DNA of 64,000 nucleotides, taken from the NCBI RefSeq assembly GCF_054482595.1, contig NZ_CM137008.1; one strand, given 5' to 3'. A model generated the notes under the pieces. The model searched no databases and was not told the origin of the DNA. It worked only from the letters and a program-made list of their open reading frames with translations. Shown piece by piece: positions 36,169 to 36,823 of the stretch. Made by a program: the position numbers and the translations under genes. Each line of letters opens with the position of its first letter. Positions within the stretch are counted from its first letter, which is position 1.

Positions 36169-36435
36169 ATGGACATTAACAACAAAGCCCGCATTCATTG
36201 GGCATGCCGCCGTGGTATGCGCGAACTCGATATTTCAATCATGCCGTTTTTCGAACATGAGTACGACAGCTTAAGCGATGACGAAAAACGCATCTTTATT
36301 CGTCTGCTGGAATGTGACGATCCAGACCTGTTTAACTGGCTGATGAATCACGGTAAACCGGCCGATGCAGAACTGGAAATGATGGTCCGACTCATCCAGA
36401 CACGGAACCGGGAACGTGGTCCTGTGGCAATCTGA
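36169..36435 (+). CDS. sdhE: FAD assembly factor SdhE (CptB antitoxin)
   Basis: ORF track 88 aa, [21 protein letters not shown]. Confidence 0.9.
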
Positions 36436-36823
36436 TTTGCGCGTCTCCTGGCGCGCGCAGTGGCTTTCCTTGCTGATTCATGGGCTGGTTGCCGCTGTTA
36501 TTTTACTCATGCCCTGGCCGCTCAGTTACACCCCGTTATGGATGGTGTTACTTTCGCTGGTGGTGTTTGATTGCGTTCGCAGCCAGCGGCGTATTAATGC
36601 TCGCCAGGGGGAAATTCGCTTGTTGATGGACGGGCGTTTGCGTTGGCAAGGGCAGGAGTGGAGCATCGTCAAAGCACCGTGGATGATTAAGAGCGGCATG
36701 ATGCTGCGTTTACGTTCTGATGGCGGTAAACGGCAACATTTATGGCTGGCAGCCGACAGCATGGACGAAGCCGAATGGCGGGATTTACGGCGGATTTTGT
36801 TGCAACAAGAGACGCAAAGATAA
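36416..36823 (+). CDS. ygfX: inner membrane protein YgfX (CptA toxin)
   Basis: ORF track 135 aa, two TM helices; overlaps sdhE by 20 nt. Confidence 0.87.

Follow-up and report, generated by a model that had tools for sequence, protein, structure and literature searches.

The overlapping sdhE-ygfX gene pair of Escherichia coli: a conserved dual-coding junction and a doubtful toxin-antitoxin label

Introduction

Does the short overlap between sdhE and ygfX belong to a toxin-antitoxin locus, or to a housekeeping pair in which an assembly factor and a membrane protein are made from the same message? SdhE, a small protein of five helices, is an FAD assembly factor: it promotes the covalent attachment of FAD to SdhA and FrdA. 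Type IV toxin-antitoxin systems are defined by partners that do not bind each other and instead act on a common target. An E. coli ygfY (sdhE) mutant is reported to lack succinate dehydrogenase activity and to be unable to grow on succinate, yet it is viable, and the role of SdhE in covalent FAD attachment is described in the Serratia work.

The published record on the pair as a toxin-antitoxin system is divided. As recounted in citing papers, overexpression of YgfX in E. coli caused growth arrest and lemon-shaped cells, an effect counteracted by YgfY, and YgfX inhibited polymerisation of FtsZ and MreB (Masuda 2012); to this extent, the description of YgfX as a toxin acting on cytoskeletal proteins, which an earlier sequence-only reading of the present DNA had repeated, is faithful to the literature. 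For the Acinetobacter baumannii pair placed in E. coli, cptB reversed the growth inhibition by cptA in a dose-dependent manner. The Serratia homologue is reported to give no toxin-antitoxin phenotype, and its YgfX to interact with SdhE. In Shewanella, overexpression of the homologue produced only a non-specific growth defect from which YgfY gave no rescue; co-expression worsened growth, deleting both genes left the ygfY defect unrescued, the YgfX-SdhE (YgfY) interaction was not seen, and binding to FtsZ or MreB was not found. The Shewanella pair fails every toxin-antitoxin criterion that was tried there. In adherent-invasive E. coli, expression of cptA rises mildly with bile salts and within macrophages. 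The label has its basis in two studies, one by overexpression in E. coli and one on Acinetobacter, and we consider it doubtful.

We examined the pair in a 64,000-nucleotide stretch of contig NZ_CM137008.1 (the window). The genes, the overlap, the function of SdhE and the disputed CptA/CptB label are all already published. What we add is a quantification of the conservation of the overlap, tied to a conserved strand of YgfX, a probable PH-like fold for the soluble part of YgfX, and a genomic case against the toxin-antitoxin label.

Results

Identity and surroundings of the locus

The sequence-only reading had named the two genes sdhE and ygfX and had placed a 20-nt overlap between them. The open reading frames, the family models and the RefSeq annotation all agree on both identities, and the overlap is exact to the base, with the same boundaries in RefSeq (Table 1). 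By the positions of the open reading frames, ygfX lies in the +1 frame relative to sdhE. A 1.2-kb region spanning the pair matches several complete E. coli chromosomes at 100% identity, and on one of them (L001) RefSeq places sdhE at 20270-20536 and ygfX at 20517-20924, a window coordinate being the L001 coordinate plus 15899. In the RefSeq annotation the pair is flanked by ygfZ, divergent upstream, and fldB, convergent downstream. These are the genes of the sdhE-ygfX operon of the E. coli chromosome, which is already well known.

At 20 nt, this overlap exceeds every other same-strand overlap in the surrounding 41 kb of the RefSeq table; the others (pepP-ubiH, ygfT-ygfS and xdhD-ygfM) measure just 1 or 4 nt. 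Downstream, an inverted repeat occupies the greater part of the 39 nt that separate the convergent ygfX and fldB genes. A T-run is absent on both sides of this repeat and the terminator scan made no call there; it is possibly a terminator shared by ygfX and fldB, or a hairpin that stabilises their transcripts.

Table 1. Features of the window, with positions counted from its first nucleotide
Feature	Position	Strand	Description
sdhE (ygfY/cptB), FAD assembly factor	36169..36435	+	ORF with ATG start, 88 aa; RefSeq annotation agrees
ygfX (cptA)	36416..36823	+	ORF with GTG start, 135 aa; RefSeq name "protein YgfX"
sdhE/ygfX overlap, GTGGTCCTGTGGCAATCTGA	36416..36435	+	20 nt, out of frame; encodes SdhE R83-I88 plus stop and YgfX residues 1-7
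Conserved stretch ACACGGAAYCGGGAAC	36400..36415	+	inside sdhE, directly 5' of the ygfX GTG; putative ygfX translation-initiation region
Shine-Dalgarno-like AGGA	36160..36163	+	5 nt 5' of the sdhE ATG, as read from the sequence; best anti-SD duplex -4.3 kcal/mol
YgfX transmembrane hairpin	36449..36601	+	helices at residues 12-31 and 36-62, short loop PWPLSYTP
YgfX cytoplasmic domain	36602..36817	+	residues 63-134; six beta strands and C-terminal helix, probably PH-like fold
Inverted repeat TGACGGC...GCCGTCA	36827..36856	unassigned	7-bp arms, GC-rich; predicted fold -15.7 kcal/mol
ygfZ	34946-35926	-	divergently paired with sdhE; likewise in 89 of the 91 loci L002-L092
SIB_RNA antitoxin genes (Rfam)	20903-21053 and 21295-21445	-	opposite ibsC
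ibsC toxin genes (RefSeq)	about 20919-20978 and 21311-21370	+	opposite SIB_RNA
6S RNA gene ssrS	22094-22277	-	139.8 bits
ES036 (CssrF) sRNA family	4798-4840	-	short match, 42.5 bits against a gathering score of 37.6
prfB	about 40957-42055	+	RefSeq joined CDS with annotated programmed frameshift

The window also holds another toxin-antitoxin-like locus, as the sequence-only reading had implied when it called sdhE-ygfX the second: two Rfam SIB_RNA genes lie opposite two ibsC genes annotated by RefSeq. These are two tandem copies of the sibC/ibsC type I toxin-antitoxin system (20903-21445), situated between serA and fau (ygfA).

Conservation of the overlap in the Enterobacteriaceae

A search with a 10-sequence YgfX alignment yielded 80 loci from 80 species, all of the retained loci belonging to the Enterobacteriaceae. 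Conservation of the overlap, the check that the sequence-only reading had proposed, proved complete in this set: the GTG start and the 20-nt overlap are present in 80 of 80 species, at YgfX identities of 72-99%. Eighteen of the 20 overlap columns are invariant across these species. In sdhE, the entropy at third codon positions drops from 1.00 bit outside the overlap to 0.11 bit inside it, and in ygfX from 1.16 bit to about 0 (80 species in both cases). Between E. coli and either Citrobacter or Klebsiella, synonymous sites are saturated with changes (dS >1), yet the third positions of the overlap hardly vary. Since every species keeps both the GTG and the 20 nt, and since third-position entropy collapses within them, the overlap is conserved far beyond chance.

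Low synonymous variation begins 16 nt upstream of the GTG, where the sdhE third positions between 36400 and 36415 have entropies of 0-0.42 bit. Synonymous suppression at this place is the pattern that a constrained translation-initiation region would show.

Junction geometry in more distant relatives

Eight single-protein look-ups added 11 distant loci (L082-L092), corresponding to seven distinct places with a complete sdhE and one at which sdhE is cut by the end of the contig. In all 80 species loci and all 11 distant loci, ygfX lies directly 3' of sdhE on the same strand. The 20-nt overlap recurs in L084, L085/L086, L087 and L089, where YgfX identity to the E. coli protein is 29-39%. Elsewhere the geometry shifts: the overlap is 29 nt with an upstream ATG start in L082/L083 (about 50% identity), 26 nt with an upstream GTG start in L088 (34%) and 14 nt in L090 (28%), and in L091/L092 (31%) a gap of 30 nt separates the genes. 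A 37-bp gap has been reported for the Shewanella homologues.

The YgfX N terminus is retained through these changes. Residues 2-11, with the consensus VxWQxxLRxS, are kept in a 39-sequence alignment of the family down to 26% identity, and the N-terminal motif MVxWQxxLRxS is found family-wide, even in a locus without an overlap. At the gapped locus, YgfX still begins MWQIQLRIS, and the SdhE tail is unrelated to that of E. coli; this indicates that it is the YgfX frame that carries the constraint, with the SdhE tail (RGPVAI) as a passenger. The overlap is a real constraint across the Enterobacteriaceae and more distant relatives, and not an artefact of annotation.

Signals for expression of ygfX

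The anti-Shine-Dalgarno duplex at the ygfX GTG is calculated at -4.0 kcal/mol, a value equalled or bettered at 17% of random positions in the window. RNA spanning the junction (36380-36470) folds at -32 kcal/mol, compared with -30 ± 3.3 for shuffled sequences (z = -0.62), and gives no sign of a structure that masks the GTG. Because this fold is ordinary, it lends no direct support to an unmasking mechanism. A promoter scan of positions 35800-37000 returned zero sigma-70-like sites, also none 5' of sdhE, and is uninformative; a terminator scan of the same interval gave two terminator-like hits inside ygfX, against 1.4 expected by chance. Co-transcription of the pair has been reported in Shewanella, Acinetobacter and Serratia. 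Given the conserved overlap geometry, the conserved 16-nt stretch, the weak Shine-Dalgarno match combined with a GTG start, and the co-transcription reported elsewhere, coupled expression, which the sequence-only reading took the overlap to imply, is a reasonable expectation, and the most reasonable reading that we infer from the sequence is translational coupling or low-level synthesis of YgfX that depends on sdhE.

SdhE and YgfX as proteins

SdhE matches the Pfam family Sdh5 (PF03937) with 90.8 bits (cutoff 27; E = 5.1e-26) and, over its full length of residues 1-88, the NCBIfam equivalog NF008130 with 198.4 bits (cutoff 120). The RGxxE motif is present as R15-G16-M-R-E19, and R15, G16 and E19 are invariant in 23 genome-paired SdhE sequences. 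The predicted model consists of five helices (residues 6-13, 18-34, 37-47, 51-58 and 67-83). Three PDB entries, 1x6i, 6c12 and 6b58, match near-identically with E values of 1e-51 or lower, of which 6c12 is the complex with SdhA and 6b58 that with FrdA. A PADLOC defence-system search with SdhE gave no hit.

YgfX matches a single Pfam family, Cpta_toxin (PF07254), titled "Membrane-bound toxin component of toxin-antitoxin system", with 169.1 bits (cutoff 27.3; E = 6.6e-50), its residues 2-131 corresponding to profile positions 1-132 of 133. Searches for an NCBIfam model, a PADLOC hit and a relative of solved structure found none for YgfX. The family is small: among 1.84 billion representatives it accounts for 133 clusters at 50% identity. 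YgfX protein has been detected in E. coli membrane pull-downs. That it has two transmembrane segments, as the sequence-only reading had it, is borne out by the hydropathy scan, in which Kyte-Doolittle windows exceed 1.4 over residues 12-54, and by the AlphaFold model (39 homologues; pLDDT 91.9, pTM 0.71), in which both hairpin helices reach a pLDDT of 90 or higher. The modelled order of elements is a strand at residues 2-8, the two helices of the hairpin, six strands and a C-terminal helix at residues 118-134. With strand 2-8 placed in this way, the overlap codes for part of the YgfX structure. Positive charges flank the hairpin at either end, and these charges, together with the modelling of the N-terminal strand as beta, fit a topology in which the N and C termini are both cytoplasmic.

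On the strength of the model, the cytoplasmic beta-sandwich domain probably has a PH-like fold. Foldseek of the YgfX model against the PDB returned nothing significant, and Pfam contained no PH-family match to YgfX even at E values up to 10. When the two proteins were modelled as one linked chain, SdhE-(GGGGS)x5-YgfX, from 23 genome-paired sequences, both parts were confident, the pTM was 0.47, and no confident docking was obtained.

Genomic behaviour of the locus

Of 5426 complete E. coli genomes, 5425 carry the sdhE-ygfX region, and the median copy number is one. Upstream of sdhE, a divergent ygfZ is found in 89 of the 91 loci, with YgfZ identities as low as 42%, and the two loci that lack it are contigs ending short upstream; fldB lies downstream in 85 of 91. 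The product of ygfZ is a folate-dependent tRNA-modifying/Fe-S-related protein. This arrangement suggests that sdhE and ygfZ, each encoding a maturation factor for redox-cofactor enzymes, share a regulatory region. Both genes of the pair evolve slowly, with dN/dS values of 0.05 or less for sdhE and 0.04-0.15 for ygfX.

Matches to mobile elements are rare. Among 72,556 plasmid records 12 matched, of which five are Mb-sized and three more measure 0.69-0.79 Mb, and among 50,697 phage records two matched, both of which look chromosomal. Taken together, almost all of these plasmid and phage matches have a chromosomal appearance. Two records of Enterobacter hormaechei labelled as plasmids, NZ_CP114989.1 (51 kb) and NZ_CP126871.1 (58.7 kb), carry sdhE-ygfX with a YgfX identity of 75.6%; they may be chromosomal fragments mis-assigned as plasmids.

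The pair shares with toxin-antitoxin modules their small two-gene layout, its genes coding for 88 and 135 aa with a 20-nt overlap and co-transcription being reported in three other species. Patchy distribution, several copies and links to plasmids, prophages or islands, which are typical of such modules rather than a strict defining feature of them, were not found for sdhE-ygfX.

Discussion

We think it likely that sdhE-ygfX is a vertically inherited housekeeping pair in which YgfX, produced from the same mRNA as SdhE and coupled to its translation, serves as a membrane partner or modulator of SdhE. ygfX starts at the GTG inside sdhE, 20 nt before the sdhE stop and in the +1 frame, behind a weak Shine-Dalgarno sequence. 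YgfX would then most likely be made from the shared mRNA in small amounts that depend on translation of sdhE, with ribosomes that translate or terminate on sdhE either opening the ygfX start or re-initiating there. The overlap would be held fixed since its bases encode a conserved strand of YgfX, the tail of SdhE travelling as a passenger. The product would most likely be a membrane-bound partner or modulator of SdhE, as reported in Serratia, and the growth arrest and lemon-shaped cells seen in E. coli would more likely be an effect of overexpression than the native function. A more specific version of this model, which we put forward only tentatively, is that YgfX is no toxin and acts as a membrane-anchored PH-like adaptor that binds SdhE at the inner membrane and controls the location or the extent of SdhA and FrdA flavinylation; the N-terminal strand encoded by the overlap would complete its fold, and toxicity would be an artefact of overexpression.

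Two other accounts of the junction were weighed. In one of them the overlap is an annotation artefact, YgfX starts at a TTG at 36437 and the two genes adjoin with no overlap. The ygfX frame is preceded by a stop codon at 36380, its first possible start is the GTG at 36416, and the only nearby alternative is this TTG, in frame and one base past the TGA stop of sdhE; its position directly after the stop and the weak Shine-Dalgarno match of the GTG speak for it. However, the triplet concerned (codon 8) is TTG, CTG, TTA, CTT or CTC among the 80 loci and is often not a start codon at all, whereas the GTG is invariant in 80 of 80, and variation of this kind marks an ordinary leucine codon and not a start. 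The anti-Shine-Dalgarno match 5' of the TTG is also poorer (-2.2 kcal/mol). Moreover, YgfX residues 2-7 (VLWQSD), which a TTG start would remove, are conserved family-wide, fall inside the Pfam profile from its first position, which aligns to residue 2, and make part of a confident beta strand in the model. With codon 8 varying as leucine, the GTG invariant and the N terminus conserved, we rejected the TTG start, which is very improbable. The other account takes the near-invariant overlap, with ygfX in the +1 frame of sdhE, as a programmed +1 frameshift site that yields a membrane-tethered SdhE-YgfX fusion of about 217 aa, and it can point to fusion ORFs of 166-217 aa, with both Pfam domains, in metagenome and Logan assemblies (P0002, P0003, P0005, P0008, P0013 and P0022). 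These ORFs, however, join at differing positions, some by indels within the overlap and others by larger deletions or by frameshifts earlier in sdhE, and all of the fusion clusters are single sequences except P0005, which has two, as assembly errors or sporadic indels would give; the ORFs look like such products and not like a programmed fusion. Dual coding accounts for the invariance of the overlap, the junction has neither a slippery motif nor a stimulatory structure (the fold with z = -0.62 above), and distant relatives have 30-37 nt between the genes. The programmed fusion was rejected on its varied junctions, its missing slippery motif and the gapped relatives, and we give it next to no credence.

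The remaining rival concerns function, and holds that CptA/CptB is a genuine type IV toxin-antitoxin system in which YgfX blocks FtsZ and MreB polymerisation and cell division, SdhE moonlights as antitoxin, and the overlap fixes their ratio. The results recounted from Masuda 2012 were obtained in E. coli itself, and the dose-dependent reversal with the A. baumannii homologues, the name of the Pfam family, the small bicistronic layout and the mild induction of cptA by bile salts and in macrophages all agree with this proposal. It is opposed by the lack of a toxin-antitoxin phenotype in the Serratia report, though the proteins interact there, by the finding that the Shewanella pair is not a toxin-antitoxin system, and by the existence of a viable ygfY deletion mutant of E. 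coli. An interaction of YgfX with SdhE, as reported for Serratia in that account, also violates the definition of type IV. In addition, SdhE has an independent conserved function in an essential pathway and occurs widely without YgfX. Finally, the locus is core, single-copy, syntenic and immobile, and it is under strong purifying selection; its single copy, kept synteny and near-absence from plasmids and phages, together with this selection, make a classical toxin-antitoxin role unlikely, while toxicity on overexpression is compatible with the genomic evidence. We therefore regard a genuine type IV system as unlikely. The sequence-only reading is accordingly upheld in its gene identities, the overlap, the two transmembrane segments and the published toxin description, and not in its classification of the pair as a toxin-antitoxin locus, for which the Serratia report (the refuting outcome that this reading had itself named, an absence of toxicity on ygfX overexpression, is reported there), the non-specific and unrescued Shewanella defect, the reported binding of the partners and the genomic behaviour all point the other way.

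The housekeeping reading has a practical consequence. The genomic evidence joins the experimental reports in indicating that the pair is better left out of any count of typical toxin-antitoxin modules, though databases and Pfam list it as one.

Comparison with known systems places the pair as follows. The E. coli K-12 sdhE (ygfY, cptB)-ygfX (cptA) operon has the same genes, the same relative coordinates and the 20-nt overlap in RefSeq, and has ygfZ, fldB, xerD, dsbC and recJ as neighbours in common with the window; there is no difference of substance, and the strain of the window has its two tandem sibC/ibsC copies elsewhere in the window. With the SdhE/Sdh5/SDHAF2 family (PF03937), the SdhE of the window has in common a full-length match to the model, the RGxxE motif and the five-helix bundle. 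Alpha-, beta- and gamma-proteobacteria as well as eukaryotes have SdhE, whereas a linked ygfX is confined to a narrow set of relatives. The YgfX domain has about 10% sequence identity to PH-like domains (RanBD and eukaryotic PH) and, unlike them, has a strand (residues 2-8) that precedes the membrane hairpin in sequence.

A further comparison is with CbtA/CbeA (YeeV/YeeU), the system that defines type IV toxin-antitoxin pairs. Like sdhE-ygfX it is a small unit of two genes, and for both toxins an inhibition of FtsZ and MreB and the formation of lemon-shaped cells have been reported. In contrast to sdhE-ygfX, a single-copy syntenic core locus, CbtA/CbeA lies in the CP4-44 cryptic prophage and has the E. 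coli homologues YkfI and YpjF. CbtA/CbeA is soluble, whereas YgfX is a membrane protein. Unlike CbeA, the proposed antitoxin SdhE has a separate role in enzyme assembly, and, again unlike the partners of CbtA/CbeA, SdhE and YgfX are reported to bind each other in Serratia.
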